Source: Minisyncoccota bacterium (GTDB lineage Bacteria > Patescibacteriota > Minisyncoccia > UBA6257 > GWB1-50-10). From it: a stretch of DNA of 64,000 nt. A model generated the notes under the pieces. The model was given only the letters and a program-made list of their open reading frames with translations, was not told the origin of the DNA and searched no databases. Positions 4,342 through 56,471 of this stretch are shown piece after piece. Position numbers and translations under genes: made by a program. The first letter of the stretch is position 1. The number at the start of each line of letters is the position of its first letter. The stretch covers positions 11,079 through 75,078 of the forward strand of contig JAGVBU010000012.1 of assembly GCA_020059585.1 (NCBI GenBank). The letters are read 5' to 3'.

Positions 4342-4353
4342 AAATTTTTGAAA

Positions 4354-5285: not shown

Positions 5286-5484
5286 ATTTTCTTACCTGTT
5301 TCAACTCTTCTTTTTTCCCGATGCGATATAATGCCGCAGAACGCCGCTTATTGCGGTTCACCGCGCGACTCGTAAAACGGCGCTTTCTCATCTCCTTCAT
5401 GATACCGCTGTGTTTTACCTTTTTGTTGAAACGAAAAAGAAATGAACCTACGCTTTCCCCTTCTTTTTTCTTTGCTTCTATCAT
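5248..5484 (-). CDS. rpsU: 30S ribosomal protein S21
   Basis: ESVGSFLFRFNKKVKHSGIMKEMRKRRFTSRAVNRNKRR resembles the S21 core (ALRRFKR..EK.G...E.R.R..YEKP). Confidence 0.7.
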   Translation of the reverse strand: MIEAKKKEGESVGSFLFRFNKKVKHSGIMKEMRKRRFTSRAVNRNKRRSAALYRIGKKEELKQVRKYGNNATSGKKNS

Positions 5485-5491
5485 TGATATA

Positions 5492-5893
5492 CTATGAAAT
5501 TATTTTTTTCTTTATTTCTTCGACTGATTCTTTTTTATATTCCGCAATACTTTGAATGCATCCTCCTCCGTCGTCCCGCCATCGCGGCATAATGTGGATA
5601 TGAAGGTGAGGTACCTCCTGCCCCGCCGCTTCTCCATGATTTATCCCTATACTGAATCCGTCCGGACTTAGCTTTTCCTTGAGAAGAATAACAACGCTCT
5701 TTACCGCTCCGAACAGATCTCCCATCTTCTCCGGAGGGACATCATCAATTGATGCGGCATGAAACTTCGGTAATACAAGCGTATGTCCGGGTGTACGAGG
5801 ATGAATATCCAGAATCCCTATCGCGTCATCATCTTCATATATTACATGCGAGGGAATCTCCTTATGCGCAATTTTACAAAATATACAGTCCAT
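5492..5893 (-). CDS. HIT-family (histidine triad) nucleotide hydrolase
   Basis: HLHIHIM histidine-triad motif. Confidence 0.8.
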   Translation of the reverse strand: MDCIFCKIAHKEIPSHVIYEDDDAIGILDIHPRTPGHTLVLPKFHAASIDDVPPEKMGDLFGAVKSVVILLKEKLSPDGFSIGINHGEAAGQEVPHLHIHIMPRWRDDGGGCIQSIAEYKKESVEEIKKKIIS

Positions 5894-5898
5894 GGGCG

Positions 5899-7254: not shown

Positions 7255-7759
7255 TCACGGGCCACAGTCGAATGCGCACCACGCCGATAATATCATCTTT
7301 CGGAAGGGGTCCCCAACTCCTTGAATCAAAACTGAAATTACGATTGTCTCCCATCACGAAATATTCATCGTCCTCAAGAGTGACTTCAAATGATCCCTGA
7401 GTAAATCTTCCGCTCAAATAAAGTTCGTTGAGATCTATTTTCTCTTCATCTTGATATGCGGTGATGCGCCCCCCCTCAAGAACAATGCGCTCCCCCGGCA
7501 ATCCTATAATTCTCTTTATGTAAAAAGACTTCGGATCCGCGGGATAACGGAATACGACAACCTCCCCGCGTTGAGGATCGCGGAATGAATAAGTGAGTTC
7601 GTCGACAAGAAGATAATTCCCATTATAGAATGTCGGTTCCATGCTCGCGCCGCTTACCACAAACGGCTGGATGACAAACGCGCGCACAAGAACAACAGCG
7701 ACCACCGCGAGAGCGACAGTCTCAAACATCTCAAACAGGGACCATAAAATTTTCTTCAT
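7220..7759 (-). CDS. lepB: Signal peptidase I
   Basis: SGASMEPTF (catalytic Ser box) and GDNRNFSFDSRSWG (box E). Confidence 0.9.
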   Translation of the reverse strand: MKKILWSLFEMFETVALAVVAVVLVRAFVIQPFVVSGASMEPTFYNGNYLLVDELTYSFRDPQRGEVVVFRYPADPKSFYIKRIIGLPGERIVLEGGRITAYQDEEKIDLNELYLSGRFTQGSFEVTLEDDEYFVMGDNRNFSFDSRSWGPLPKDDIIGVVRIRLWPVNEVQAFSAPTY

Positions 7760-7803
7760 AAAAATAGAAAACGGATATTGAGTATGCGATAATTGTATGG
7801 AAT

Positions 7804-8349
7804 ATGAAAGAAAAGTTCAACTTTGAAAATAGTACACTCATCGCCGGACTTGGAAATCCGGGAAATGAGTACGAAAGGACATTTCATAATGCCGGAGCGC
7901 AATTCGTTTCTTTTGCGGTAATACAACACGGAGAGAACATCGGGTGGAAAAAACATTCCTCCGGACTCTTTACATACGCGAAACGCGAAGGACGTATATT
8001 TCTCGTTCCTCTTGTGTTTATGAATGAATCAGGGAGCGCTATCCTCCGCGCGTTATCATTCTTCAAGATCCCCGCAGAAAAAATGATAATTGCGCATGAT
8101 GATTCTGATATAGGAATAGAGTCCTACAAGATCGACTATGGACGGGGTGCGGCGGGACATCGCGGCGTTGCGAATGTGATGAACGTACTCGGCACAAAAT
8201 CGTTCTGGCGGATCCGCATAGGAATACGGGATATGCGGGAAGAAAAAAGGATGAAAGCGGAAACGTTTGTCCTCTCTAAGGAGACGCGGGAAGAAAAAGC
8301 CGCTCTTGAGCGGACATTTCTTTCGATCCTCGAGGAAACACACTTATAG
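7804..8349 (+). CDS. pth: Peptidyl-tRNA hydrolase
   Basis: IAGLGNPGNEYERTFHNAGAQFV N-terminal signature. Confidence 0.9.
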   Translation: MKEKFNFENSTLIAGLGNPGNEYERTFHNAGAQFVSFAVIQHGENIGWKKHSSGLFTYAKREGRIFLVPLVFMNESGSAILRALSFFKIPAEKMIIAHDDSDIGIESYKIDYGRGAAGHRGVANVMNVLGTKSFWRIRIGIRDMREEKRMKAETFVLSKETREEKAALERTFLSILEETHL

Positions 8350-9861
8350 TGTTTTTTCCTTAATAGAAAAGCTTAAGGAGAATCCCACTGATCCATTCTC
8401 TAATTCTTTTATACTAAGAAGTGGAATTACTACATTTTCAAATTTTCCCGATTCGGAAAGCGTGTTTTTAAATGAAATCGCGGAAGTATTGTCGGGGGAA
8501 GTCGCGGACACGAGTATGAGCGCGTCAAGAGAGGAAACATCAATCCGTTCCACCACAATTTTATTCTGTGCGGCAACCGCGAGAAAATCCTCAAGAAACG
8601 CACGCCACGTGCCCGCATTATTGGAAGCGCCCTGCAACGCGCCCACAAGAGTGTTAAAATTATCCGCCTTACTTCTTAAAAGAGCGAGTTCTTCCTGATT
8701 TACTTGGGTTTTTGAAGAGATGATGCTTCCTTCTATTGAGCTTCTCTGCGTACGGAGAAATATATAGGAAGAAAAGAATAGTACAAAAAAGAATCCGAAC
8801 ACAATAATGAAAATATTTCTCCAAAGCCTGACAAAACTCACCGCATATTCTTCAAAAAACATATCAGCGGATGTTTCTTTATTCAGATTAATGTATTCTT
8901 CGGGTTTCCCTGAACGCATGACATCGCGCATCGCGGCGCCAAACGCGACATACCACACAGGAGACATCCCCTGCGCCGGCACTATAAGCGGCTCAATTGC
9001 AACCGAAAAATTCTCTCCTATAACTTTCTTTACCTCTTCTTCAAATCCCGGAGTGACAAGAAGCGTCGCCTCAATCTTCTCTTTGAATTTACTCATCGAG
9101 AAATTAATGACTTTCCGCACTTCCTCAACGATGACCTGATTGAACCGGTCGCGTGATATCTGGCTTTCTTCTCCCTGTATCGATCGCCACGAACGGAAAT
9201 AGTCGAAGTGTATCTTATTCTTTCTTACAATTGAGAGATTGATGCCATCACTTGATACTTGAAGCAAAAGTACGCTTTTATCTTTCGTGCGCGCCGATGT
9301 TGCGATGAGACGAGAAATAGAAAGCGAAGGAAACTCGAACGCAACCGGATAAAATCGCGACGCGATAAACGCATCTTTAATATCGTCGATAATCTGCGCC
9401 TCGATAAACGCCCCGAGAAGCTCATAGCGCTCGGGAGATTCACTGAGTATTTGCCAGCTCATATAGGAGGATGCGGGAGGAAGCGGAGAAATCATCTGAA
9501 GATTCAGCATCACGGACTCTTCAAGTTTTTCCTCTCCCACATTCGGAACATTGAAACTTTGGGTATATACAAGAGAACTTGGGAGTACGCCGACGACCTG
9601 AATAATTTGCGTTTCCTTTCCTGGAGCAATCGCCTCATGAAGCTGAGAGAGTATGTGTATAAACTGCCCCTTATCTTGAATGCGTCCGTCAACAACCACT
9701 CCCGGAGGAAATCGAAATGAATATGCCTTCGGCGATTTTCCCGAAACGCCTACATACTGTATTCCGATGTTACTTATCTGCAATCCACCGAGCTCGGGTC
9801 GGGAGCTTAACCGCTCGAGGAGATATGTCGCTTTTTTAAAAAGATTGAGATATTTATTCAT
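8344..9861 (-). CDS. Probable type IV pilus assembly PilM-PilN-like fusion protein (cytoplasmic actin-like domain, single TM, periplasmic tail)
   Basis: ~340-aa N-terminal actin-like region, one TM helix (NIFIIVFGFFFVLFFSSYIFL), ~135-aa C-terminal domain; adjacent TadE-like gene. Confidence 0.4.
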   Translation of the reverse strand: MNKYLNLFKKATYLLERLSSRPELGGLQISNIGIQYVGVSGKSPKAYSFRFPPGVVVDGRIQDKGQFIHILSQLHEAIAPGKETQIIQVVGVLPSSLVYTQSFNVPNVGEEKLEESVMLNLQMISPLPPASSYMSWQILSESPERYELLGAFIEAQIIDDIKDAFIASRFYPVAFEFPSLSISRLIATSARTKDKSVLLLQVSSDGINLSIVRKNKIHFDYFRSWRSIQGEESQISRDRFNQVIVEEVRKVINFSMSKFKEKIEATLLVTPGFEEEVKKVIGENFSVAIEPLIVPAQGMSPVWYVAFGAAMRDVMRSGKPEEYINLNKETSADMFFEEYAVSFVRLWRNIFIIVFGFFFVLFFSSYIFLRTQRSSIEGSIISSKTQVNQEELALLRSKADNFNTLVGALQGASNNAGTWRAFLEDFLAVAAQNKIVVERIDVSSLDALILVSATSPDNTSAISFKNTLSESGKFENVVIPLLSIKELENGSVGFSLSFSIKEKTL

Positions 9862-9874
9862 TGTGAAATAAAGA

Positions 9875-10357
9875 CTATTCTATCGCCTGCTCCTGTATCG
9901 ATTCGAGTTGTACACGTCCCGTCACCATATCGACAAGTAGTTGCGTTCCGAGCTTCTTCTGTCTACTTCCCGCGTAACCGACACTCTCAATGATATACGC
10001 GTATCTTCCGTTTTCGGTGTCCGTCGTCCTGCATATCATGACTTCCGCGGAATCGCTTCCAACAGCGAGAGAATATGTGTAAGGAGAGTCACAGGCATTT
10101 GAAACGAACTCCTTGTTTTGGGAAATTCTCATTATTCCATCTCTTGCTCCGGAATGCGCCGCGGCATTCGCGCGAACAGAAAGACGCTCTCCATATCCTG
10201 ACGTACTCAAAAAATAAGCAACAAATGATCCCGCAATAGCAATCTCAACAATGATGCCGCTTACTAGAAGAATAAAAGGAAGCGTCATCTGTCCTGATTC
10301 GTTTCGAGCACGCGTACGCATTAATGATATCATACCAAAAAAAAGAAGGGGGGGCAC
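9875..10357 (-). CDS. TadE-like / pseudopilin-like protein
   Basis: N-terminus ...RARNESGQMTLPFILLVSGIIVEIAIAG fits the TadE-like pattern (R..GQ..VEfAl + hydrophobic helix). Confidence 0.4.
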   Translation of the reverse strand: MPPLLFFGMISLMRTRARNESGQMTLPFILLVSGIIVEIAIAGSFVAYFLSTSGYGERLSVRANAAAHSGARDGIMRISQNKEFVSNACDSPYTYSLAVGSDSAEVMICRTTDTENGRYAYIIESVGYAGSRQKKLGTQLLVDMVTGRVQLESIQEQAIE

Positions 10358-12232: not shown

Positions 12233-12982
12233 GGCACGCACTACCGCGGTAACCTTTTTCTCTATCGAGTTTGTGTCATAAAAACCATAATCGGAAAAAT
12301 CAACCGAATTTTTTGCGGTTACCTGAAAAACCCCCATTGTCGCCGACTGGAGAAATCCGATAGAAGCACCAGTACTCTCGGCGATTTTTTCCGCGCGTAA
12401 CTTCGCGTTCTGTGTCGCCTCGGAAAGCATCTCGATTCGAAGTTCGGAAAGCTTGTTGTAATAATATTCAACATTCTGGCTTGAGAAAAATACTCCCTTC
12501 TCGATAAGCGCGTCAGACGCTTCCTGCGTGAGTTTCGTTATCCTGTCTACGTCAGATGATTGGATAATTACCTCCTGACGCAACGCATACCCAGTAGTGC
12601 GAGTACAGTTCTGATTTCCTGATTTGTCGTAAAAGATATTCTGCTGGCTTTCGCAGATTGGGCTTGTCGCGACCGGCTGCGCACTAATATCGGATTCAGG
12701 AATTCCCGCGGCAATAAAATACGCGCGGACGATCTCGAGATCGCGTTTCATATCAGCGCTTCCTGATCGAAGGTCGTCAATCGAAACGCTTCTTGAAAAT
12801 CCGCTCACCCACTTTACCGTGTCAGATTTTACAAGCTTATCGGCTGATCCCGTAACGGATATGACATTCGCAAGCGACTTAATGTTATACATTGTAAACG
12901 CCACGACGCTCGTTCCAATAACAATACTCAACCCAATAATAAGCGCGGCAAGCGCGATATGATTTTTTTGTGCGTGTTCCAT
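12215..12982 (-). CDS. SIMPL/DUF541-like periplasmic protein (YggE-like)
   Basis: N-terminal TM/signal anchor; SIMPL-like blocks (ISVTGSADKLVKSDTV...). Confidence 0.45.
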   Translation of the reverse strand: MEHAQKNHIALAALIIGLSIVIGTSVVAFTMYNIKSLANVISVTGSADKLVKSDTVKWVSGFSRSVSIDDLRSGSADMKRDLEIVRAYFIAAGIPESDISAQPVATSPICESQQNIFYDKSGNQNCTRTTGYALRQEVIIQSSDVDRITKLTQEASDALIEKGVFFSSQNVEYYYNKLSELRIEMLSEATQNAKLRAEKIAESTGASIGFLQSATMGVFQVTAKNSVDFSDYGFYDTNSIEKKVTAVVRASFSLQ

Positions 12983-13023
12983 ATCACAAGAATATCACGA
13001 AAAACAAATGTGAAACATACGCT

Positions 13024-14730
13024 CTATACACGATCAAGAGATTGCATAAGAGCGATGTCGTTTTCTTTCAACGTCTCAAGTATCTCCATCTTTGGATCAA
13101 GTCCTATGGTCTTTCCAAGGTACTGCCCCGAAGTGAAGTGAGGAAGAAGCACATAATCGGCCCCGCGGTCATAAAGCTCCTTCGCGTCCATTTCGGTATC
13201 GGCGCGAACCACAATCTTCGGCCGGACATCATCTGGAAGGGAAAGCCGAGAAAGAAGCATAATCCCATCTTCAATATCGGGACTCGTCGAGATAATAAGA
13301 CGAGCCTCCTTGAGATGCACCGTCTCGAATATTTCCTCATCGGCAATGTCGCCATAAAGGACGGGATATCCTTTTGCTTTTATTTTTCGTATTGCTTCGG
13401 GATCGAAATCGATAACAAACACATCGTTCCGCGGCAACCCCGAAAGGATACTCTCCCCCGTTCTTCCGCATCCGATGAGTATGATGGGCTTTTTCGCGCT
13501 CCCATCCGAGATCTCGGTTTCTTTCGTGTGCTTTCGTTCAAAGAGCGAGAGCGCTTTCGATAATATCTTGAATAATGCCTCCCCGTGCATAATGAGATAT
13601 GACGAGAGCGCGATCGTAATAAGTCCCACCGCGGTCACGATTGCGACAACGCTATCGGTAATGTGTCCAAGTTTTAATCCCATCGCGACAACCACAAGAC
13701 TGAACTCTGATATCTGCGCGACGGTAAGTCCCGTAAGAAAACTCGTTCGCTTCCGATATCCCATAACCCCCATAATAATGAGAACAATGATTGGATTTCC
13801 TATGAGCACGAAGAGCGAGAAGATAATGATGGGCATCGTAAGACCGGAAAAATTCGAAAAGACAACCGACGCGCCGAGAATAACAAAGAAGATGAGAATA
13901 AAAAAATCACGAAGCGGTCGGAGCTTGTAAGATATTTCGAAATGTTCTGATGAATTCGCAAGCGCGAGTCCGGCAAGAAATCCCGCAATCTCGATCGAAA
14001 ATCCGATCTTTGAAACAACCGCGGCAAGGAGAAAAAGCCACGCGAGACTCGTGAGAAAAAGAAGCTCCTGCGACCGGGCAATCTTGTCGAATATCATTGG
14101 GAATATTTTCCTCCCAAGAAAAAGCATAAGCGCGAAAAGAACCGCCGCCTTAAGAAGAGTGCTGATAACATTCCACCACACTCCATCACTCCCCGTCCCC
14201 ATGCCCGCGAGGAGGATAAGAAGGACAATCGCGACAATATCCTGAACAAGAAGAAATCCCACGCTGATCTTCCCGTAAAGACTGTGTATTTCTCGCTTAT
14301 CAGAGAGGAGTTTCACGATAATGATAGTGCTCGAAAACGTGAGCGCGACCGCAATGTAAAGCGCGGGCACGAGAGAGAATCCGAATGCGCTTGCGATAAG
14401 GTATCCGAAAAGCGCCGTAAACACGATCTGTCCAAGACCGACGAGAATAGACGCCTTCCCCACAAGACGCAGTGACGTATAGTTGATTTCGAGTCCCACA
14501 AGAAAGAGAAGGAGCATGATTCCGAGATCGGAAAATACGGTAAAAAGCTCCTTATCCCCAAGATTCAGGAATCCGAAGTAGCCGATAAGCATGCCAGTCG
14601 CGAGATACGCGAGAATAACCGGCTGGCGGAATAATTTCGCGGCAATACCGAGCGCGGCGGCGACGAGGATTACTATCGCAAGTTCAAATAAACTTCCTGT
14701 CATAATGTTTGGTGTGCATTCATCATACAA
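13024..14730 (-). CDS. Kef-type cation:proton antiporter with a C-terminal TrkA-N (RCK) domain
   Basis: Na+/H+ exchanger membrane domain followed by IILIGCGRTGESI (Rossmann GxGxxG). Confidence 0.85.
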   Translation of the reverse strand: MYDECTPNIMTGSLFELAIVILVAAALGIAAKLFRQPVILAYLATGMLIGYFGFLNLGDKELFTVFSDLGIMLLLFLVGLEINYTSLRLVGKASILVGLGQIVFTALFGYLIASAFGFSLVPALYIAVALTFSSTIIIVKLLSDKREIHSLYGKISVGFLLVQDIVAIVLLILLAGMGTGSDGVWWNVISTLLKAAVLFALMLFLGRKIFPMIFDKIARSQELLFLTSLAWLFLLAAVVSKIGFSIEIAGFLAGLALANSSEHFEISYKLRPLRDFFILIFFVILGASVVFSNFSGLTMPIIIFSLFVLIGNPIIVLIIMGVMGYRKRTSFLTGLTVAQISEFSLVVVAMGLKLGHITDSVVAIVTAVGLITIALSSYLIMHGEALFKILSKALSLFERKHTKETEISDGSAKKPIILIGCGRTGESILSGLPRNDVFVIDFDPEAIRKIKAKGYPVLYGDIADEEIFETVHLKEARLIISTSPDIEDGIMLLSRLSLPDDVRPKIVVRADTEMDAKELYDRGADYVLLPHFTSGQYLGKTIGLDPKMEILETLKENDIALMQSLDRV

Positions 14731-43934: not shown

Positions 43935-44975
43935 ATGTTCGAAAAAGCCCATAATAAAAAACAAGATGATATCATTGATACATTCAATAAATATCAGTCA
44001 CTCTTCGCAGAATACGTTGATCCCCTTATATACGAACGTCAGAAGGTCCGTCCTTTTCTGTCTCCCGAAGATGCGCAACAAATGAAACGGTATGAGGAAA
44101 TATCGCTTGAGAATCCAGAGGAAAATTATGAGATACATCTTAAATCGAAAATATTTGAGGGTGCACTTGTAAAATTCGGAAAAAAAATCTTCGGAGAAAA
44201 TATAGAAACTATCCCATCAACGGAATACGATGATTGGGTGAATAAGTTCGATATGTTTATTGCACACGGAGATTCCCAAATAGGGATCGACGCAACACTA
44301 TGTAAAAATACCTTGAATACAGAGAGGAAAAATGGGGAAATCTTTTCGGACATAGAGCGACTCGATGAAAAAGATAGAGGAAAAGAAAAATTCCATGTAA
44401 AGTATTTTATGCCAACCGGAAAAAAAGAGGCTCCGATCGAACTCCACGGAATACCGCGCGTCATTATCGGAATCCACGCCGATTACCTCGAGAAAATGCT
44501 TCTCGAAATAAAAAACGGAAATAGTGCTCCTTTTAAATTAATGTTCCTAAATATGATAAAATCCCAACTCGAAGATCAATTTATATTTGCACTCGGAGTG
44601 AATGGGGAGAAGAAGGATAAGGAAGATAAAACATATAAGACGCGCGTTCCTGAACCTATAAAAAGAGACGTAAGAGAAGTATATCCGTTATGCGCAAAAG
44701 CGGTGAAATCAGATTGGAACGAAGAAAAGATAAAAGACTTGTTTATCTCATTTGAAAAAAATAAAAATCTGTTCGCGTTGAAACAATTTTCCTTTCCTGA
44801 ATATCATCAACTTCTCTCAAACATACAAACATCATGGAATTGGGTCTCTAGTGAACTTGCGAACATAAAGAAAGAAAGCTCTCCCACTTTGCTAAATGAA
44901 ACGGAAGTTGAAAACAGACTACGGTCTCATATCAACGAAGATCAGGTATTGAAACACAGACCTTTTCTCGCTTAA
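43935..44975 (+). CDS. Hypothetical protein
   Basis: 346 aa, charged and helical; no recognised motifs. Confidence 0.4.
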   Translation: MFEKAHNKKQDDIIDTFNKYQSLFAEYVDPLIYERQKVRPFLSPEDAQQMKRYEEISLENPEENYEIHLKSKIFEGALVKFGKKIFGENIETIPSTEYDDWVNKFDMFIAHGDSQIGIDATLCKNTLNTERKNGEIFSDIERLDEKDRGKEKFHVKYFMPTGKKEAPIELHGIPRVIIGIHADYLEKMLLEIKNGNSAPFKLMFLNMIKSQLEDQFIFALGVNGEKKDKEDKTYKTRVPEPIKRDVREVYPLCAKAVKSDWNEEKIKDLFISFEKNKNLFALKQFSFPEYHQLLSNIQTSWNWVSSELANIKKESSPTLLNETEVENRLRSHINEDQVLKHRPFLA

Positions 44976-45009: not shown

Positions 45010-48000
45010 TTAGTCCTTTTTTATTCCCACCCAGACGTCCCATTCATCGATCTTTGTCTGGATCTCCGCGTCTATCTTCGGAGAACGTATTATTGTTGAA
45101 GATTTCGCCCCTACGTCCTTCTTTAGTCGCGTCATATGTTTCTCCGCCACAAACTGTATTTCCTCCGAACCGTGTACATAAAGCGTGATCGTGTCCTTCA
45201 TGCGAAGTCCCGCGTCCTGTCTAAGATCTTGGATAATGCGCACAAGCTCGCGGAAAAGCCCTTCTTCGCGAAGCGCGTGGGTAACGACAGTATCAAGAAT
45301 GACCGTTTCGCCAAGATTCTCTTGGAAGATCACCTCTTTCACGTTTATTTCATCCTTTAATATCTCAAGATATTTGGAGTCGCGCGCGGAAAGATTTGTT
45401 TTTTCGGAAGAAATCGTGATGGAAGCAAGAGGCTGACGGACCTTAATCCCCGTCTCCGCCCGTTTTGCGAGCGCGGCACTTGCAATCACGCGAACCGACT
45501 CCATTTTTTCAAACATCTTTAGCGCCTTTTTTGCTCGCGCGGAATCTCCTCGGGGCCATTCCTCAAGGTGAACTGACGTCTTTTTCTGCGGCAATGAGAG
45601 ATAGAGCGCCTCCGCGAAAAAAGGAGTAAAGGGCGCAAGGAGTTTTGAAATCTCAAAAAGCACATGCCCCAAAACCCTTGAAGCGACCATGTGGTCTTTT
45701 TTATTTTCAGGACGCTGAAGCCTCTTTCTCGACCGGCGTATATACCAACGGGAAACATCTCCTACAAAGTTTTCAATGTCTCTCGCGGCGCCTCCCACGT
45801 CATACGCGTCCAACGCGCGAGTTGCACGCGCAGACGTCTCTGAAAGGCGATCTAATATCCACAAATCAAGAAGCGTGCATTCCGATTTCGTGATTCTTTT
45901 TGCGCACGCGCTCTTGTCCGCATACAAATCAAAAAAGAGAAAAGAGTTATAAAGAAGGGAAAAGAGCTGACGTGATACTTTTGAGATATCCGCTTCATCA
46001 AAACGCTTTGGCTCTCCCGGAGGATTCACGGTGTAGAAATACCATCGGGACGCGTCAACTCCGTATTTTGCAATCATATCCCATGGACTTACTACATTTC
46101 CCCTTGATTTCGACATCTTCTGTCCATTCTTGTCGAGTACGAGTCCAAGGGATATTACATTTTTATACGGAGCCTCTTTTCCGAGAATCGCGGAAACCGC
46201 GAGAAGTGTGTAAAACCATCCTCTCGTCTGATCCATCGCCTCTGAAATATAATCAGCGGGATATGGAAGATTTTTTTTGGTTCCCTTTTCGAAAGGATAA
46301 TGCACTTGCGCGAACGGCATTGCTCCCGAATCGAACCATACGTCGGCAACTTCCGGAATACGGGACATTATTCCCTTCGCGCATTTCTCACATGGGAATT
46401 GCACCGCGTCTATGTAGGGACGATGCATATCAAAGCCTCCGGTGGCGTCACGCGGACCGCTGCGTATCGTCTCCTTCTCAAATCCCGCGTTTTTGACGTA
46501 ATCAACGCCCCGTTTCTCCTTCTCTTCAAGCTGGTCCTCAGTTGACCATCCCTTCGCAATGGTATGGAGCATGTATACAAGTCCATCGTGCGTTACTATA
46601 AGTATTTTTTTGTGGGAATGTTTTTTTTCAACATCGGAAAGAAACTCATACACCCGCCTCCTTAGATCTGTGTGATTTTCCCCATTCGGCGTTCTCTTCG
46701 TAAATTTTTCGGCGCGGTTTCCGTAATACGCGGCATACGACGCGTAGGGCTTTCCATTGAAGTCGCCAAAATCAAATTCGCGCAAGCGCGGATCAAAATG
46801 CACTTCCTTTATCCCGAGCGCCTTCGCCACTATCTCGGCGGTCTGCTTTGTGCGGGCAATATCGGAGGCGAATATAATATCAATTTTTTCCTTTTTCAAA
46901 ATACGCGCGCTTTTTTCAACTTGAGTCACTCCTTTCAGCGTAAGCGGGAGTTTTTCCGGTTCCGGCCAGCAATTAATAAGATGTTTTGTATTATTCTCGG
47001 CTTCCCCATGCCTCATGAATACATAAGAATTCGTACTCTTCCCAATCGCGTCACCAAATTCCTCCGCGGATTTCACGACGCGTATCGCGCTACAGGAATT
47101 ACACTCCCACACTGGAAGCGGGGTTCCCCAAAAACGTTCACGGGATATTGCCCAGTCCTTCACCTCGCGAATCCATTCCCCAAATCGTCCATCCTTCAAG
47201 TGGTCCGGAATCCAGCGTATTTTTTTGTTTTCTGAAATAAGTTTTCCGCGAAGCGAACTCATCTTTATAAACCATGAATTCCTCGCGTAATAGAGCAGCG
47301 GAGAACTACAACGCCAACAAAAAGGATATTCGTGCTTATATTTTTTCTCGCTGAAAAGATTTCCGGACTTTTCGAGCGCGTCAATGACATATGCCTCCGT
47401 TTTAGGATTCTTTGCCGGCATTCCCCCAAAATGAGGAATTTCTTGAAGAAAATTCCCCGCCTCATCAACAGTGTGGATTGCGGGAAGCCCAATTGCCACC
47501 CCAAGATTATAATCGTCCTCCCCGTACATCACCGCGGTATGCACAACTCCCGTGCCGTCCTCCGTGGTTACAAAATCCGCAGCATATACTTTGTAAGCCT
47601 TCTCATCCGTATCATTGTCTTTTATCGCCCGTATATCGAAAAGGGGCTCATATTCGATACCAAGAAGATCTTTTCCGTTAAGAGTAATCAGCGTCTTGTA
47701 TTCGGTGTGAAGCACGGAGTCAATCAGGTTTTCCGCCAAAATGTAGCGTTCTCCGGTATTCTTAATATTTACTACCTGATATTTGATATCCTTCCCCACC
47801 GCAAGAGCGACATTTCCGGGAAGCGTCCACGGCGTTGTCGTCCACGAAAGGATATAGGTATGCTCATCCGCGACAAAATCAGTTCCAATCTTCTGCCCTT
47901 TCTTCACTTTAAATTTTATATATACGGAACGGTCTTCCACCTCCTTATACCCTTGCGCAAGCTCGTGTGAAGAGAGCGCGGTTCCGCATCGCGGACACCA

Positions 48001-48558
48001 CGGCACCACCTTGTGTCCCCTATAGAGAAGTTTTTTCTTCCATGCTTCATGAAAAATCCACCAGAGTGTTTCAATGTACGAATTTTTGTATGTGATATAA
48101 GGATTCGCGAGATCGAGCCAGAAACCCATACGGACCGTAAGTTTTTCCCACTCGTCTTTGTATGTCCACACCGATTCCCTGCATTGCTCGTTGAACGGAG
48201 CGATGCCGAATTTTTCAATGTCCTTTTTTGTGGAAAAACCAAGCTTCTTCTCCACCTCAAGCTCAACGGGAAGCCCGTGCGTATCCCACCCCCCCTTTCT
48301 CGGAACATAAAAGCCGCGCATCGTTTTATATCGGAGAACAATATCTTTGAAAGAGCGGGCAAGTACATGATGGATACCCGGACGGCCGTTTGCGGTAGGA
48401 GGACCCTCAAAAAACACAAACTCTTTTTTCGTCCGGTTTTTTAAGAGTGAGCGGGTGAAAATATCGCTCTCCCGCCAGAATTCAAGCACTTTTTCCTCAA
48501 CTTCGGGAAGCGAAAATTTTTGGGTGTTTTTGAGCATATATATTTCTTTATGTCCCAT
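45010..48558 (-). CDS. ileS: Isoleucyl-tRNA synthetase with an inserted histidine-phosphatase (PGAM-like) domain
   Basis: HIGH-like PPTANGRPGIHH, CP1 editing domain, WCPRCGT zinc motif, KMSKS. A ~190-aa insertion (aa ~508-705) carries RHGEAENN and ILIVTHDGLV, the two catalytic-histidine motifs of the histidine phosphatase superfamily. Confidence 0.9.
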   Translation of the reverse strand: MGHKEIYMLKNTQKFSLPEVEEKVLEFWRESDIFTRSLLKNRTKKEFVFFEGPPTANGRPGIHHVLARSFKDIVLRYKTMRGFYVPRKGGWDTHGLPVELEVEKKLGFSTKKDIEKFGIAPFNEQCRESVWTYKDEWEKLTVRMGFWLDLANPYITYKNSYIETLWWIFHEAWKKKLLYRGHKVVPWCPRCGTALSSHELAQGYKEVEDRSVYIKFKVKKGQKIGTDFVADEHTYILSWTTTPWTLPGNVALAVGKDIKYQVVNIKNTGERYILAENLIDSVLHTEYKTLITLNGKDLLGIEYEPLFDIRAIKDNDTDEKAYKVYAADFVTTEDGTGVVHTAVMYGEDDYNLGVAIGLPAIHTVDEAGNFLQEIPHFGGMPAKNPKTEAYVIDALEKSGNLFSEKKYKHEYPFCWRCSSPLLYYARNSWFIKMSSLRGKLISENKKIRWIPDHLKDGRFGEWIREVKDWAISRERFWGTPLPVWECNSCSAIRVVKSAEEFGDAIGKSTNSYVFMRHGEAENNTKHLINCWPEPEKLPLTLKGVTQVEKSARILKKEKIDIIFASDIARTKQTAEIVAKALGIKEVHFDPRLREFDFGDFNGKPYASYAAYYGNRAEKFTKRTPNGENHTDLRRRVYEFLSDVEKKHSHKKILIVTHDGLVYMLHTIAKGWSTEDQLEEKEKRGVDYVKNAGFEKETIRSGPRDATGGFDMHRPYIDAVQFPCEKCAKGIMSRIPEVADVWFDSGAMPFAQVHYPFEKGTKKNLPYPADYISEAMDQTRGWFYTLLAVSAILGKEAPYKNVISLGLVLDKNGQKMSKSRGNVVSPWDMIAKYGVDASRWYFYTVNPPGEPKRFDEADISKVSRQLFSLLYNSFLFFDLYADKSACAKRITKSECTLLDLWILDRLSETSARATRALDAYDVGGAARDIENFVGDVSRWYIRRSRKRLQRPENKKDHMVASRVLGHVLFEISKLLAPFTPFFAEALYLSLPQKKTSVHLEEWPRGDSARAKKALKMFEKMESVRVIASAALAKRAETGIKVRQPLASITISSEKTNLSARDSKYLEILKDEINVKEVIFQENLGETVILDTVVTHALREEGLFRELVRIIQDLRQDAGLRMKDTITLYVHGSEEIQFVAEKHMTRLKKDVGAKSSTIIRSPKIDAEIQTKIDEWDVWVGIKKD

Positions 48559-51410: not shown

Positions 51411-53033
51411 TTACATTTTTTTAGGAGCAGATATTCCTATACAGTGAAACACGGAGCGGAATACATTCCGAGCCGCGAATACAAGCGCGAGACGAGGAAC
51501 GGAAATTGCGCCATCTGGACCGATTACTCGTTCGTGTTCATAAAAATTATGGAACGCGCGCGCAAGATCGAATGCGTATCGGGTAAGTCGATGCACCTCG
51601 TAATCCCGCGCGGTATCGGCAACGACACACGGAAATTCCGCGATGCGGCGTATGAGATTCATATCATGCGGCGAGAAAACAAATTCGGAAAATACGTCGC
51701 TTTCTGACTTCGGCTCCTCCGCTCCCGATTTTTCTATAATATTTTCCGCGCGTACGTGCGCATACTGCACATAATAGACTGGGTTTTTCATGGACTGCTC
51801 TTTCGCGAGATCAAGATCAAAATCAAGATGAGTGACTGGAGCGCTCGAAAGGAGAGAAAACACAAGATTATCGGAACCCACCTCATCCAAAACTTCTTTT
51901 GCGGTCACATATGTCCCCGCGCGCTTCGACATTTTCACAACCTCCTTTCCCTTCTTTACGCGCACAAACTGATAAAGTAACACGGAGAAATATTGCGGAT
52001 CGAATCCGAATATCCTTGCGAGTGCCTGAAGTTTAGGCACGTGCCCGTGATGATTGCTTCCGAAAACATCAATGACTATGTCGTATCCCGACTCAAATTT
52101 TTCCCTGTGATACGCGATATCAGAGGCAAAATACGTCGGCTTACCATTCGAACGGACTACAACCGACTCTCGATCTTCTAAAAATTCATCTTTCGGCGCA
52201 AACCACCACGCGCCCTCCGATTCTTTGAGCATCCCTTTTTTCTTGAGAAAGGCGATGGACGATTCCGTTTTCCCTTTGGAGAGGAAATCGCTTTCCTTAA
52301 AAAAACCATCGAAATGTATCCCAAGGCGGCGAAGCACATCCTCATTCTCTTTAAGAATAAATTCAAGGGTAAAATCGGTGATTGTGCCTATATCACTCAT
52401 AGAAAGCGCTCCGCCAAGCGTCGCATGCGCCGCCCGCGCGACTTCCTCGAGATAGGTTCCTTGATATCCCCCCTCTGGAAACTCCGCGCTTCCACCGCGT
52501 ATCGTCTCATACCAATACCATACGGTCGCGGCAAGCTTCTCTATCTGAGTGCCTGCGTCGTTATGAAAATATTCGCGAAACGTCTCATATCCCGACATCT
52601 CAAAGACGCGGGCAATCGATTCGCCATATGGGCCTCCGCGGGCATTCCCAATATGTATCGGTCCAGTTGGATTCGCGGACACATACTCTATGCGCGCCTT
52701 GCGCCCCGTTCCTATAGTATTCTTTCCGTATTCGGAACCAAGCATAAGATTCTTCTCGATTTCTCGGAAAAAAAATTGAGGGTGAATATAAATATTCACG
52801 AACCCTGGGTGTACCGCCTCCACATTTGAAAAAATATCTTCTCCTGATTTCTTAATAGTTTCGGAAATTTCCCGAGCAACCTCAATCGGCGATCTGCCCT
52901 TTCTTTTTGCGAGCCCAAAGGCGCAATTCGCGGAAAAATGTCCCCGCGTGTCGTCGTCCTGAAATTCAAGAGTCCAATCCCCAAGATCGGAAACCAACTC
53001 TTCAATCCGTGCTTTTACAATATCACGAAGCAT
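51411..53033 (-). CDS. argS: Arginyl-tRNA synthetase
   Basis: SANPTGPIHIGNARGG (HIGH region) and C-terminal DALR anticodon-binding domain. Confidence 0.9.
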   Translation of the reverse strand: MLRDIVKARIEELVSDLGDWTLEFQDDDTRGHFSANCAFGLAKRKGRSPIEVAREISETIKKSGEDIFSNVEAVHPGFVNIYIHPQFFFREIEKNLMLGSEYGKNTIGTGRKARIEYVSANPTGPIHIGNARGGPYGESIARVFEMSGYETFREYFHNDAGTQIEKLAATVWYWYETIRGGSAEFPEGGYQGTYLEEVARAAHATLGGALSMSDIGTITDFTLEFILKENEDVLRRLGIHFDGFFKESDFLSKGKTESSIAFLKKKGMLKESEGAWWFAPKDEFLEDRESVVVRSNGKPTYFASDIAYHREKFESGYDIVIDVFGSNHHGHVPKLQALARIFGFDPQYFSVLLYQFVRVKKGKEVVKMSKRAGTYVTAKEVLDEVGSDNLVFSLLSSAPVTHLDFDLDLAKEQSMKNPVYYVQYAHVRAENIIEKSGAEEPKSESDVFSEFVFSPHDMNLIRRIAEFPCVVADTARDYEVHRLTRYAFDLARAFHNFYEHERVIGPDGAISVPRLALVFAARNVFRSVFHCIGISAPKKM

Positions 53034-53096: not shown

Positions 53097-53549
53097 TCAT
53101 TGTAATGCCTTATAATTGTGTATGATTCCGTCCGGTGTTTCAGAAACTATGATGCGATATATTCCGAATGGATTCTTTGTGTTTCTCTCAAGTTCATCGC
53201 ATGTGATGTGAATGAGATCGATAAAACCGGAGCGCACCGCGAAAAGAAGTTCACTCATCCGCGACCCTACGGGAAACACATCTCTTCTTTTCCATAATTC
53301 TCTCATCCGATTCTTCCGGAGACGATCCATAAGATCTTGGTGCCCCTCCTTTACAATCACAAATATTCTTTCTCTTCCGCGAAAAAATTCACGTGCGGCA
53401 TCCGCGGTCTCCTTTGAGTTCACTAATATGTATATACTGTCGCCGTTGTCTGTTATGAAATTAATCACGGGAGGAACGTTATCACGGATATCACTGTTGG
53501 GACCGAATACTACGGATTCGAAAAATAAAAACGTTTTTTCCATTGTCAC
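53097..53549 (-). CDS. Hypothetical protein
   Basis: 150-aa ORF. Confidence 0.35.
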   Translation of the reverse strand: MTMEKTFLFFESVVFGPNSDIRDNVPPVINFITDNGDSIYILVNSKETADAAREFFRGRERIFVIVKEGHQDLMDRLRKNRMRELWKRRDVFPVGSRMSELLFAVRSGFIDLIHITCDELERNTKNPFGIYRIIVSETPDGIIHNYKALQ

Positions 53550-54102: not shown

Positions 54103-54423
54103 GGGGATGACGGGCCTCGACAATGTGGCCTCTCCGCAGACTGCGTGCCGAGCTCGAATATCTCGTAAAACTGTCCGAACAAACAATAACTGCCAACAAA
54201 ACAGCAGTTCCGGCGTTCGCCTTCGCGGCATAACGCTCATCGGGCCCAAGGTCTCATAGGGATCACCCGGTGTTATATCTGAGACTCGTTCCGTAAAAAC
54301 CGCTTTGCATATACGGAATCAAAGACGCGAAGCACCATTGTTTCGGACGTTAGTCCAAAAACTACGCATGTAGAGTGTCTGTGAAGAACTCATTGGACGC
54401 CGGTTCAACTCCGGCCATCTCCA
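54103..54423 (+). ncRNA. ssrA: tmRNA (ssrA), ~321 nt
   Basis: 5' end GGGGATGACGGGCCTCGAC (consensus GGGGnnGAnnGGnnTCGAC). 3' tRNA-like end GGACGCCGGTTCAACTCCGGC-CATCTCC-A with a G3:U70 pair. Candidate tag ORF GCC AAC AAA ACA GCA GTT CCG GCG TTC GCC TTC GCG GCA TAA (ANKTAVPAFAFAA*) at 54192-54233. Adjacent to smpB. Confidence 0.85.
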
Positions 54424-55948
54424 CATCTTGTACATTGGGATCAATAACCTGTTTAAAAACCCTTAAAGGAAGGGATAATTCTGCGGTTCCAAAACCATTT
54501 TGAGGATCGTAGGCGAGTTTTGATTCAAATATAATCTTGAATATCAATCGTTTTTCGGATAAATCCTCTTTTTCCCATTGTGTATGTGGGTTCTTTAGTA
54601 TTTCAAAAACTTTTTCGAGGGCGGTTTCAAAGCTTATAGATAATTTTTGTTGAGTGCCATTAATTCGTTCTTCGAGTACTTTTCTTTCCTCGGAAAGCCT
54701 TTCTATCTGCTGTTCATATTCCTGAATTAGCGTTTCTTTTTTTGATTTAGAAACCCGATCCATAAAACCGTCCACCTCTCCTAGTATTTCTTTGAGGCGA
54801 TTCTTGTCCTTTTCTTCACGCTTTTTAACTTCTCCCACTTTTTCATTCCAGATATCGAGTGTTATGGCTTTTGTTAGTTCAAGCACACCCGGCTTAGGTT
54901 TTATATGCCTTAAAATCGCCCCAAAACTGCCCTCTATAACGCTTTTAGGCACCCCTTTATTCCTCATAAGACAACTTACAGAAGCACACCTATAATAGCC
55001 GAATTTTGCATTTCTACCTCTACTCCAACTTGCAGTGTATGGTTTCCTGCAGTGTTCACAAAGAACGAATCCACGAAGGGGAAAGTCGGGGTTAGCGTCT
55101 TTCCTTGTTTGAGTCCGGACTTTGCCCAAGAGTTTTTTCTGAATTTTTTCAAAAGTTTCTAAACTTATAAGCGGTTTATGGTGTCCCTTTCTCCGTGATA
55201 CCTCCCAAGGAAGATATTCAACGTAGCCAGCGTAGATTGAACGCATCAGAAGACGTTTCACATCTTCTACATACGGTTTTTTCCCTTTGCGCTTTCCATA
55301 ATAGTTTTTTGAAACAAGGAATCGCAACACGTCCATCTGCTCGTATAGCTCTCCTGAGGCGTATTTTTCCAATGCTTCGCGTATAGTGGTCGCTTCTGGT
55401 TCCGTAGAAACCAATAGTTTGCCGTGTATCGGGTCCTTTTTTTGTACATACCCGGGAGGAGGATAAAACGGCCAATATCCTTTTTCTAAGCGAGCTTTTT
55501 GCTTTTGAATAACCTGACGCTTATTCTGCTCTCGTTCTAATTGCCCCTGGGCAGCAAAAATCGTTTCTACAAATGCGCCCTCGGGACTATCATCAAAATT
55601 ATAATTGAGACACTCGGGCTTTAATTCACGCGCACGAAACTCACGTCGTAGATTCCAATGGAAAATGGTGTCTCGAGCAAATCGTTTTAGATCGTCAAAA
55701 ATTACAACGTATTTTTTGTGTCTATTTTTATCTGCATAATCGAGTAAGGACCGCATTGCTGGCCGATTCATAAAATCTCCGCCCCCACTAAAGCTGTCTC
55801 GAAATACCCGTTCTATCTCGTATCCTTTCGTCCGTGCATATTCACGACAACGATGTTCCTGACTATCTAGCCCGTGTCCATCGTTCTTCTGTCTTTCGGA
55901 AGAAACACGGCAGTATATAAGTGCGAATGTTTTCTGCATATACATCAT
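54362..55948 (-). mobile_element. Large serine recombinase (integrase) whose C-terminal coding region overlaps the last 62 nt of tmRNA
   Basis: N-terminal catalytic domain YCRVSSERQ (catalytic Ser), recombinase domain, Cys-rich zinc ribbon (CEHCRKPYT...YYRCASVSC) and coiled-coil; 528 aa. Confidence 0.85.
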
Positions 55949-56082: not shown

Positions 56083-56471
56083 AGTGGCAAGAACAACAAA
56101 TAAAAAACGCCATTTTGGCGCTATTCCGATCTCTTAAGCGCCGAAGTAAACGGGCGATTAAGAGGAATAATTAGATTTGTTGTTTGTGCCGAAACGCTGG
56201 TTTCCGCACTAAGTTAACTCCCCCTGATTGATATTAAATTTTTAACTTTTTTAGTATAACACTTTCGTGCTAATATACAAACACAACTGAATAGCCATTA
56301 GGCAAACCTAACCCGTCGAGAAATCGGCGGTATGGTCCAAAAAACGGTTCAACGTACTAAGCTCCTAGTCAGAGCACGTTGAACCGTCATACGGGGAAAC
56401 CTGTATGGGTCCGCAAGGATCGCTGGCTGGGAGCTTTGTGTTTTCCCGCCAGCAACGAAAAACAAAATAAA

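Follow-up and report, generated by a model that had tools for sequence, protein, structure and literature searches.

An isoleucyl-tRNA synthetase with an inserted histidine phosphatase domain in a Minisyncoccota bacterium

Closest described systems

Bacterial aminoacyl-tRNA synthetases are usually viewed as architecturally frozen, and the extra domains attached to such enzymes are mostly eukaryotic and mostly non-catalytic. The protein described here, encoded in a stretch of 64,000 nucleotides (the window), is an essential synthetase whose catalytic body houses an apparently active second enzyme. This arrangement occurs in at least 143 clusters at 50% identity, and the Patescibacteria represent a large share of bacterial diversity.

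The closest described systems are the type-2 isoleucyl-tRNA synthetases (IleRS2) of Priestia megaterium (8C8V) and Thermus thermophilus (1ILE), which have the same fold and domain order as the window protein. In a full-length Foldseek search, 8C8V is the best match (E 3.5e-89, 33% identity), while 1ILE shows 37% identity. The CP3 subdomain has a zinc motif, as does that of T. thermophilus IleRS (PMC7191050). In the window protein, however, CP3 is broken by an enzyme domain of 195 residues, whereas the solved IleRS among the structural matches have no such insert. These solved proteins are 821-1061 residues long, and the query-normalised TM score is only 0.62-0.70.

A curated precedent for an IleRS2 with an extra enzyme domain is NF040702 (ileS_w_GNAT). 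The window protein is not a member of this group, since its 326 bits fall short of the cutoff of 1999 and Pfam finds no GNAT domain in it. No description of a phosphatase insertion in IleRS was found in the literature or among curated models, and the recent papers on IleRS evolution that were consulted mention neither a phosphatase domain nor the Patescibacteria.

The inserted domain, here called hp, resembles a group of small branch-1 histidine phosphatases of about 190-200 residues. These include PhoE (1H2E), CobC (6NRU, 6E4B), PspA (4IJ5), GpgP Rv2419c (4QIH), and a riboflavin-pathway phosphatase (HFP, 9MMH). They share the RHG...R...E...H set of hp, but their identity to it is only 21-25%. 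Unlike them, hp always lies in or beside a class Ia synthetase gene in the cases examined. A branch-1 phosphatase is also joined to a nucleic-acid enzyme in the Rv2228c-type RNase H/CobC-like acid phosphatases (NF005567). That type is an end-to-end fusion with a different partner, whereas hp is a loop insertion; the NF005567 model gives 77.8 bits on the insert against a cutoff of 326.

The fused gene

The reading frame begins with ATG and runs unbroken through 1182 amino acids to the stop codon. The parts of the gene that belong to the synthetase are the following.

45010..48558, minus strand: ileS::hp, a single ORF of 1182 aa, type-2 IleRS with an inserted histidine phosphatase
47146..48558, minus strand: aa 1-471, first half of the Rossmann fold, CP core, CP1 editing domain, CP2, and start of the CP2-3 linker
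48367..48378, minus strand: GIHH (aa 61-64), a non-canonical GXHH form of the class I HIGH motif
47041..47145, minus strand: aa 472-506, N-terminal part of CP3 with the first cysteine pair (C486, C489) and the helix SAEEF
Upstream of the insert: RERFWG (aa 473-478) and ECNSCS (aa 485-490)
46354..46458, minus strand: aa 701-735, C-terminal part of CP3 with the linker P702-R703..G707..D710, HRPYID, and the second cysteine pair (C723, C726)
45889..46353, minus strand: aa 736-890, second half of the Rossmann fold with DVWFDSG (aa 739-745), KMSKS (aa 814-818, nt 46105-46119), and the stem-contact fold
45010..45888, minus strand: aa 891-1182 and stop, anticodon-binding domain and type-2 C-terminal domain (DUF5915)

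The whole protein passes the ileS equivalog model TIGR00392 with 885.1 bits (cutoff 621.4). Pfam places tRNA-synt_1 in two stretches (E 2.1e-119), Anticodon_1 at aa 898-1045, and DUF5915 at aa 1085-1181. The last two, together with the absence of the type-1 C-terminal zinc-binding domain, correspond to the C-terminal organisation of a type-2 enzyme. Homologue alignments show little or no variation in GIHH, KMSKS, the editing motifs, or the four zinc cysteines. For the CP1 editing motifs WTTTPWTLPGN (239-249), GTGVVH (335-340), and D349, this holds across 70 sequences. The GXHH variant of HIGH has been documented in active IleRS2 (bioRxiv 10.1101/2023.01.31.526100). With both its synthetic and its editing motifs kept, the IleRS part looks like a working type-2 enzyme.

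The initial annotation had described one fusion protein, with a domain inserted between the RERFWG/ECNSCS region and DVWFDSG at nt 46444-47037. The motifs are located as described, and the limits found here (46459-47040) differ from the earlier ones by no more than about 15 nt. The identical protein is found in NCBI and JGI, on a contig of 91 kb, and its 90% identity cluster has members in three other assemblies. Domain content is the same in the best 120 full-length homologues (53-99% identity). The GC content of the insert (0.45-0.48) equals that of the remainder of the gene, the insert is flanked by the zinc-knuckle cysteines, and both IleRS halves are in frame. A frameshift, misassembly, or chimera is ruled out by the continuous frame, the independent assemblies, and the architecture shared among homologues, so the fusion stands as first described.

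An intein was rejected as well, since Pfam finds only His_Phos_1 between the IleRS halves and no Hint, intein, or homing-endonuclease domain. There is hardly any chance that the domain is an artefact or an intein-like element removed after translation. Nothing speaks in favour of this, and the architecture is shared by more than 120 full-length homologues and 143 representatives.

The inserted domain

The spacing from the RYWG glycine to DSG is 268 residues, compared with 67-75 in relatives without an insert, so the net insertion amounts to about 195-200 residues. The figure of some 60 residues first given for canonical IleRS at this site is about right. The domain sits in CP3, between the two CxxC halves of the zinc knuckle. 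The zinc-knuckle excursion of CP3 (subdomain as defined in PMC7955072 and PMC7191050) begins directly after the CP2-3 linker, which lines the binding site of the tRNA CCA end (PMC7955072). An insertion “in the catalytic core”, as initially annotated, is thus accurate for the catalytic body in general, but CP3 is a peripheral subdomain and not the Rossmann core itself.

46459..47040, minus strand: hp (aa 507-700), a complete His_Phos_1 domain, collinear with free-standing proteins of 184-221 aa
47005..47013, minus strand: RHG (aa 516-518) with the nucleophile His517, within RHGEAENN (aa 516-523, nt 47013-46990)
46588..46590, minus strand: His657, the second catalytic histidine, in ILIVTHDG (aa 652-659, nt 46605-46582)

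Pfam His_Phos_1 (PF00300) matches aa 513-674 with E 2.7e-35 and 122.2 bits, against a gathering threshold of 21.7. Both of the signature motifs recognised earlier, RHGE and ILIVTHDG, are present along with the full catalytic set. Across 121 fused proteins, R516, H517, R569, and H657 are conserved in 100%, E594 in 98%, and G518 in 97%. Judged by its sequence, hp is a complete histidine phosphatase of branch 1, in which the two catalytic histidines, the two arginines, and the glutamate are all present; it is apparently an active enzyme.

A non-catalytic module has also to be considered. It would be a phosphate- or tRNA-binding appendage that raises the affinity for tRNA(Ile), like the domains appended to eukaryotic synthetases. 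About 7 of the 127 scorable hp copies among representatives have indeed lost the nucleophile histidine, and a degenerate paralogue in L029 has RPG where RHG is expected. Pseudoenzymes usually lose their catalytic residues, however, and here RH[GA] is kept in the other 120 copies and the five catalytic residues are 98-100% conserved in the clade of the window protein. This explanation is therefore very unlikely.

The description “PGAM-like” holds at the level of the superfamily and fails below it. On hp every NCBIfam family model stays below its cutoff, those for dPGM, CobC, SixA, and PspA included. The dPGM models give 42.3 against 81.7 (pgm_1), 81.6 against 225 (archaeal short dPGM), and 64.8 against 261 (GpmB). 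CobC (TIGR03162) is the best-scoring specific model, yet its 95.7 bits are below the cutoff of 162.9. SixA (TIGR00249) reaches 38.9 bits against 74.5 and covers only the first 70 residues. The hp subfamily has motifs of its own, N-x-Y ahead of RHG and W-P-E behind it.

The AF2 model of the domain has a pLDDT of 95.5. It shows the alpha/beta fold of the superfamily, with Foldseek TM scores of 0.74-0.83 to GpgP, PspA, CobC, and PhoE. The closest folds are small-molecule phosphatases of about 200 residues with a capped pocket (GpgP, PspA, the riboflavin-pathway phosphatase, CobC, and PhoE) and include no mutases. None of these is an RNA-end or a protein phosphatase, and the 50 best structural matches contain no protein phosphatase of the superfamily. 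In the AF2 model of the full-length protein (pTM 0.82) the junctions have a pLDDT of 88-93, and such confident modelling of both suggests that hp is rigidly mounted.

We propose, with a probability of roughly one in three, that hp is a phosphomonoesterase coupled to the synthetase and acts on a nucleotide-type substrate, possibly the phosphorylated 3' end of tRNA. It would be an accessory enzyme that partners the synthetase in cis or in trans, and not a passenger. It would strip the terminal phosphate from a nucleotide-type phosphomonoester at the place where the synthetase acts. The preferred candidate substrate is a CCA end of tRNA that bears a 3'(2')-phosphate or pyrophosphate and cannot be charged until healed; AMP or another nucleotide product is the alternative. 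As in other members of the superfamily, His517 would attack the phosphate gripped by R516, R569, and H657. E594 would protonate the leaving group, and the phospho-histidine intermediate would then be hydrolysed.

Coupling is suggested by the catalytic conservation, the partnership with IleRS, the recurrence at three sites, the position of CP3 next to the linker that lines the CCA-end site, and the apparent rigidity of the mounting. The modelled fold speaks against this proposal, as its closest relatives are all small-molecule phosphatases. The initial annotation had suggested that the insert may be a proofreading, regulatory, or moonlighting module, with an aminoacyl-adenylate-related compound among the possible substrates. 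Histidine phosphatases transfer a terminal phosphoryl group. Since an aminoacyl-adenylate has none, the adenylate itself is an improbable substrate. If hp is coupled to aminoacylation, tRNA charging would gain an accessory step not known before, or the translation machinery a new kind of defence.

Fused and split forms

Across the Patescibacteria, the hp subfamily occurs in two interchangeable states, either within IleRS or as a separate gene directly upstream of an insert-less ileS. The same insertion was found in the IleRS of other Patescibacteria, and the fused form occurs in 32 GTDB species. The nearest free-standing relatives of hp, of 184-221 aa, are encoded directly upstream of an insert-less ileS in every case. 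This gene lies upstream of ileS on the same strand in 9/9 look-ups, and in 7/7 free-standing GTDB cases. The order is argS-hp-ileS-recO in split genomes and argS-ileS::hp-recO in fused ones, so that the flanks argS and recO are common to both states. At the 50% identity level, 143 of 146 distant hp representatives have an IleRS context. In the window, argS is separated from ileS by four plus-strand genes.

51411..53033, minus strand: argS, remnant of the conserved order argS-(hp)-ileS-recO

Neighbour-joining trees of both IleRS and hp mix the fused with the split forms, and a clean division between them appears in 0/100 bootstraps of the IleRS tree. The linker P702-R703..G707..D710 is conserved among aligned fused forms, whereas split forms have a different, shorter sequence there.

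The same gene arrangement can be explained without any mechanistic link to aminoacylation. In this model, hp is a housekeeping small-molecule phosphatase, an ancestral neighbour of ileS that repeatedly entered permissive loops of IleRS. Its substrates would be a sugar-phosphate, phosphoserine, a nucleotide, or even those of a short dPGM, and hp would profit from being constitutively co-expressed in a very small genome that encodes few regulators. We consider this about as likely as the coupled enzyme. Structure and sequence comparisons both place hp nearest to small-molecule enzymes, and hp is absent altogether from some relatives, which have it neither within nor beside ileS. Since the order argS-ileS-recO is no less conserved than the position of hp beside ileS, adjacency alone may be inherited gene order and thus historical. 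Yet the subfamily was never found away from an aminoacyl-tRNA synthetase gene in the cases that could be determined. The short, confidently modelled junctions and the conserved linker likewise speak against a mere passenger.

A passenger domain would still be a clear natural case of insertion into the permissive loops of an essential enzyme, and a ready guide to positions of IleRS that tolerate insertions. Under either reading, the split and fused forms offer a direct experimental handle.

Further insertion sites and other inserts

The IleRS of Gracilibacteria and Peregrinibacteria carry the domain at two additional positions and can contain as many as 3-4 copies. This brings the number of distinct insertion sites in IleRS to three, and tandem arrays occur. 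One lineage (P0461) has two tandem HAD phosphatases, of a fold unrelated to hp, at site 2 in its place. One ValRS gene call lists a His_Phos_1 insert, while the IleRS of the same genome has none. Such recurrence, with HAD at one site and a ValRS call, is hard for the passenger model to explain without selection for a synthetase-borne phosphatase. On the other hand, the same loops also take GNAT, P-loop kinase, DUF559 endonuclease-like, and IS200 transposase sequences, which suggests sites that are permissive rather than selected. The divergence of tandem copies also agrees with a passenger, since it suggests diversified specificities.

Returning to the coupled phosphomonoesterase, a broader form of this proposal is that phosphatases (His_Phos, or HAD in one lineage) on class Ia synthetases give Patescibacteria a hitherto unrecognised means of quality control or repair acting on the acceptor end of tRNA. 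This is unlikely. The synthetase would clear the end of a charge-blocking 3'(2')-phosphate or pyrophosphate and would thus both heal and charge its own tRNA. The blocking groups might come from ribonuclease toxins or from toxins that pyrophosphorylate tRNA. On this view, the GNAT and P-loop kinase domains inserted in sister lineages would supply other built-in activities for handling tRNA or inhibitors. Against tRNA-end repair, there is no obvious reason for a restriction to IleRS and one ValRS, and multiple copies per protein would be superfluous.

A comparison can be made with the Pnkp enzymes (T4 Pnkp, bacterial Pnkp/Hen1), as a candidate for similar working only. They strip a 3' phosphate and make the tRNA usable again. 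Their phosphatase folds are HAD or metallophosphoesterase. A kinase together with a phosphatase is a pairing known from RNA end-healing enzymes, and P-loop AAA_33 kinases accompany hp in some related IleRS. AAA_33 with hp or HAD resembles the Pnkp pairing. The window protein is not itself Pnkp-like, as Pfam finds no kinase domain in it and AAA_33 is present only in some relatives.

Removal of reaction products is another candidate function, and an unlikely one. In this case hp would hydrolyse AMP or pyrophosphate from aminoacylation or editing, either drawing the reaction towards its products or supplying nucleotide salvage. This would be most relevant to IleRS and ValRS, the highest spenders of ATP on editing, and the one ValRS call with hp fits. 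The best sequence models are of nucleotide type (CobC, an alpha-ribazole-5'-phosphate phosphatase), and adenylate-kinase-like AAA_18 domains are found in some related IleRS. The HAD_2 family, which replaces hp in P0461, includes pyrophosphatases. However, AMP and pyrophosphate are made by every aminoacyl-tRNA synthetase, so a restriction to IleRS and ValRS is only weakly explained. Degrading AMP would be wasteful where purines cannot be made, and histidine phosphatases are not known as pyrophosphatases.

Finally, hp may be a built-in regulator. As a protein phosphatase, like SixA, PGAM5, or Sts-1, it would remove an inhibitory phosphate from IleRS, for instance from the KMSKS serine. HipA-family kinases target a serine of the KMSKS-loop type in GltX and TrpS. 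The histidine phosphatase superfamily does include protein phosphatases, and hp is anchored in the catalytic body that also contains KMSKS, about 75-115 residues ahead of that motif. This model is nevertheless improbable, given the low SixA score, the lack of a superfamily protein phosphatase among the best structural matches noted above, and a capped pocket that is typical of small-molecule enzymes. The GNAT and kinase inserts of relatives would serve as the matching writers, and kinase and acetyltransferase domains do co-occur in related IleRS, but the co-inserted kinases are of the P-loop AAA_33/Zeta-like type and not protein kinases. In Gracilibacteria and Peregrinibacteria, an IleRS with a GNAT domain usually contains hp too.

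The fusion protein

The window protein is rated as an IleRS2, a type-2 isoleucyl-tRNA synthetase, with an accessory enzyme inserted. Its gene (45010..48558, minus strand) is an unbroken reading frame with an ATG start and codes for 1182 amino acids. The initial annotation described a single fusion protein rather than an intervening gene, and both the continuous frame and the same architecture in homologues agree with this.

Domains and motifs of the window protein (amino acid positions)
two separated stretches: tRNA-synt_1 (Pfam), E 2.1e-119
473-478: RERFWG motif
485-490: ECNSCS motif
513-674: His_Phos_1 (Pfam), E 2.7e-35, 122 bits (gathering threshold 21.7)
516-523: RHGEAENN motif
652-659: ILIVTHDG motif
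739-745: DVWFDSG motif
814-818: KMSKS motif
898-1045: Anticodon_1 (Pfam)
1085-1181: DUF5915 (Pfam)

The NCBI ileS equivalog model gives 885 bits, compared with a cutoff of 621. The first two motifs, the two phosphatase motifs and DVWFDSG had all been quoted in the initial annotation and are found in the protein. Likewise, its proposed histidine phosphatase is a significant match to PF00300. From the glycine of RYWG to the DSG motif there are 268 residues, as against 67-75 in ten insert-less relatives. The net insertion is thus approximately 195-200 residues (aa ~507-700, nt 46459-47040), close to the ~190 originally placed between the ECNSCS region and DVWFDSG.

NCBI and JGI both have an identical sequence (91-kb contig), which speaks against the frameshift or assembly error that had been considered. 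The 90% identity cluster of the protein has members in three other assemblies, and its Pfam set is common to all 120 best full-length homologues, so that His_Phos_1 recurs in every relative of that survey. The insert and the remainder of the ileS gene have the same GC content. The unbroken frame, the Pfam content, the identical deposits and the cluster members elsewhere together rule out both an artefact and an intein.

The insertion site

In the IleRS of yeast and Candida, the sequence DWxxSRxRYWG forms the CP2-CP3 linker, which is part of the pocket for the tRNA CCA end, a pocket that is also the reveromycin site (PMC7955072; PMC7191050). CP3 follows the linker and returns to the Rossmann fold at its second half (PMC7955072; PMC7191050). 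In Thermus IleRS, CP3 contains a zinc motif (PMC7191050).

The linker of the window protein is VKDWAISRERFWG (aa 466-478). Two cysteine pairs, C486/C489 and C723/C726, are 98-100% conserved in an alignment with 120 fused homologues. The phosphatase is located between them, with the short helix SAEEF before it and DMHRPYID after it. The insertion is therefore in distal CP3, itself a peripheral excursion of the catalytic body. The earlier description of a domain inserted in the catalytic core holds for the catalytic body, but not for the Rossmann core. To our knowledge, it is very unusual for a bacterial synthetase to have a catalytic domain inserted in its catalytic body.

A full-length AF2 model has a mean pLDDT of 90.1 and a pTM of 0.82. 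Both junctions are predicted with confidence (88-93), which suggests a rigid mounting of the phosphatase on IleRS. A Foldseek search with this model returned only IleRS structures, the best being PmIleRS2 (8C8V, 33% identity); a comparable insert was found in none of the solved IleRS.

Two apparently competent enzymes

The phosphatase residues are highly conserved. The values below are for the query and 120 fused homologues.

Conservation of phosphatase residues
R516, H517, R569, H657: 100%
E594: 98%
G518: 97%
N523: 92%
G626 and E627: 98% and 100%
R635: 99%

The predicted fold of the domain alone has a pLDDT of 95.5. It resembles small-molecule phosphatases of ~200 residues (TM 0.74-0.83, 21-25% identity), with matches to GpgP Rv2419c, the phosphoserine phosphatase PspA, a riboflavin-pathway phosphatase, CobC and PhoE. 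A PDB sequence search agrees with these matches. The domain looks like a phosphatase rather than a mutase.

None of the specific NCBIfam family cutoffs is reached, and membership is rejected for glycolytic dPGM, CobC (95.7, cutoff 162.9) and SixA (38.9, cutoff 74.5). The archaeal dPGM model gives 81.6 (cutoff 225). The term “PGAM-like” in the initial annotation is thus appropriate as a superfamily label only.

On the synthetase side, K814-M815-S816-K817 and G61-I62-H63-H64 are invariant in 70 sequences, as are the editing motifs T240-T242, H340 and D349 and most active-site residues. Judged by these residues, both enzymes look functional, and the window protein is a conserved chimera whose two enzymes are apparently competent.

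In place of HIGH, the class I motif has the sequence GIHH (aa 61-64, window 48367-48378, minus strand), with G61, H63 and H64 invariant in 70 relatives. It is an instance of the swapped GXHH form, which has been reported to make IleRS2 hyper-resistant to mupirocin (bioRxiv 10.1101/2023.01.31.526100).

Fused and split forms

When the insert with its IleRS flanks was searched exhaustively against 1.84 billion cluster representatives, 198 proteins were returned at E <= 1e-30. The phosphatase (hp) was in an IleRS context in 143 of 146 retrieved representatives. By source name, the fused form occurs in Wolfe-, Jorgensen-, Lipton-, Taga- and Giovannonibacteria, Paceibacterales, Minisyncoccia and Microgenomates. 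Such proteins are already in public databases. Some have pipeline names, for instance [quoted passage not shown] at JGI, and one Wolfebacteria member is labelled simply “Isoleucine--tRNA ligase” in UniRef. Literature searches found no description of a phosphatase-bearing IleRS, and the recent papers on IleRS evolution and structure consulted here refer to no phosphatase domain and do not mention Patescibacteria.

The nearest free-standing relatives are 184-221 residues long, share 35-50% identity with the insert and are collinear with all of it; their N-terminus, MKLxNxY..RHGE, corresponds to KSTNSY..RHGE. In nine of nine look-ups, the free gene lies on the same strand as a type-2 ileS without insert and upstream of it, mostly overlapping it or at most 100 nt away, in the order argS-hp-ileS-recO. 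Fused loci read argS-ileS::hp-recO. Since the flanking genes are the same, the neighbourhood is unchanged and only the phosphatase has shifted, by ~1.5 kb. A GTDB species sample, matched through a low-complexity lysine-rich pattern in a small alignment and therefore not a census, includes at least 32 fused and at least seven split loci. This hp subfamily is tightly associated with IleRS, both genomically and physically. One further relative has hp neither in nor beside ileS. In the split locus L055 (5659-8739), four genes, one of them a reverse transcriptase (RVT_1), are wedged between hp and ileS, and the argS-hp...ileS order is otherwise kept.

When the insert is masked, a neighbour-joining tree of IleRS has the two states interleaved, and they were separated in 0 of 100 bootstraps. 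These trees are based on corrected p-distances and are used only for the lack of a clean separation. For example, the IleRS of split locus L024 is 65% identical to that of fused locus L014 and 64% identical to that of its closest split relative, L046. The hp tree is likewise interleaved: the free hp of L024 shares 63% identity with the inserted hp of L034, and the free hp of L028 shares 62% with the inserted hp of L023. Such a pattern argues for more than one transition, whichever the direction; because the trees are crude, the claim is limited to this.

In locus L029, the fused ileS (3522-7067) is directly followed by a degenerate IleRS::hp paralogue in tandem, 1015 residues long (7071-10115, plus strand). 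This second copy is without the CP1 editing domain, KMSKS and DVWFDSG, and has RPG in place of RHG. Possible readings are a pseudoenzyme or a duplication-and-degeneration intermediate.

Other sites and other domains

The phosphatase recurs at several sites of IleRS. In the IleRS2 of Gracilibacteria, Peregrinibacteria and Peribacteria, His_Phos_1 is present at positions other than CP3. Site 2 is directly after the WF[DE]SG motif. Site 3 is between the stem-contact fold that follows KMSKS and the anticodon-binding helices, and is the only one used in many Gracilibacteria. Protein P0354, present in six assemblies, has hp at sites 2 and 3, and P0405 has one copy in each of the three. Tandem copies, two to four in number, are found in P0326, P0369 and P0329. 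P0378 and P0346 are also among the relatives with this three-loop or tandem-array pattern. Of the scorable copies, 120 retain RHG or RHA, and about seven have another residue in place of the histidine.

In P0461, hp is absent and two tandem HAD_2 phosphatases occupy site 2 (aa 566-960), with intact DxDG motifs (DFDGV at 570, DNDGV at 772). An unrelated phosphatase fold is thus seen where relatives have His_Phos_1.

The same loops also house GNAT acetyltransferases, P-loop AAA_33/Zeta-like kinases, DUF559 and one IS200 transposase. Among Gracilibacteria and Peregrinibacteria IleRS, extra in-frame domains (GNAT, AAA_33/AAA_18/Zeta-toxin-like P-loop kinase, DUF559 endonuclease-like, IS200 Y1 transposase) occur in P0401, P0412, P0462, P0477, P0413, P0314 and P0483, some of them within the editing domain. 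A curated NCBIfam model, “ileS_w_GNAT”, exists.

Locus L059 (GCA_964532505.1) has an IleRS without insert (5001-8204) and, at 12319-13204 and running off the locus, the gene call of a 1337-residue ValRS with His_Phos_1 between its two tRNA-synt_1 halves, a case that rests on a precomputed Pfam listing. Six ValRS relatives from JGI metagenomes (38-44% identity, query the first 295 residues) were without His_Phos_1.

Possible functions

The favoured model for these observations is a functional partnership, to which we give a probability of roughly 35%. The phosphatase would be a tethered phosphomonoesterase, and its substrate a nucleotide-type phosphomonoester present at the synthetase. The model draws on several points: hp is associated exclusively with class Ia synthetases, it occupies three insertion sites, HAD domains are found in its place, kinases of the Pnkp (RNA end-healing polynucleotide kinase-phosphatase) type are co-inserted, and the insertion is close to the CCA pocket. 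The preferred candidate substrate would be a phosphorylated or pyrophosphorylated tRNA 3' end; AMP or PPi are alternative candidates. An aminoacyl-adenylate is rejected because it is without a terminal phosphate.

The main rival model, given about the same probability, is that of a housekeeping small-molecule phosphatase, ancestrally beside ileS, that repeatedly entered permissive loops. In its favour are the fold, which resembles that of small-molecule enzymes, the mixture of other inserts found in those loops, and the argS-ileS-recO order, which is equally conserved. A self-regulatory protein phosphatase is less likely, as is a non-catalytic binding module. The existence of a fused/split pair opens the question to direct testing.

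Neighbourhood of the window gene

The window itself keeps smpB-argS...ileS, a remnant of the conserved order.

Features upstream of ileS
51411-53033, minus strand: argS
53097-53549, minus strand: reading frame matching the SmpB genes of related loci (BLAST)
54103-54426, plus strand: tmRNA

These three features echo the smpB-argS-hp-ileS-recO order of split loci. Between argS and ileS are four plus-strand genes, of which one codes for a Na/Ca exchanger and one for a sigma-70 factor; the other two are without Pfam matches. A LOOT RNA (Rfam RF03000) is found at 56305-56421 on the plus strand, with a score of 84.8 bits (gathering threshold 46.4). Finally, a 346-residue reading frame without a Pfam match (43935-44975, plus strand) is convergent with ileS and has a GC content of 0.34-0.41, below that of its neighbours.
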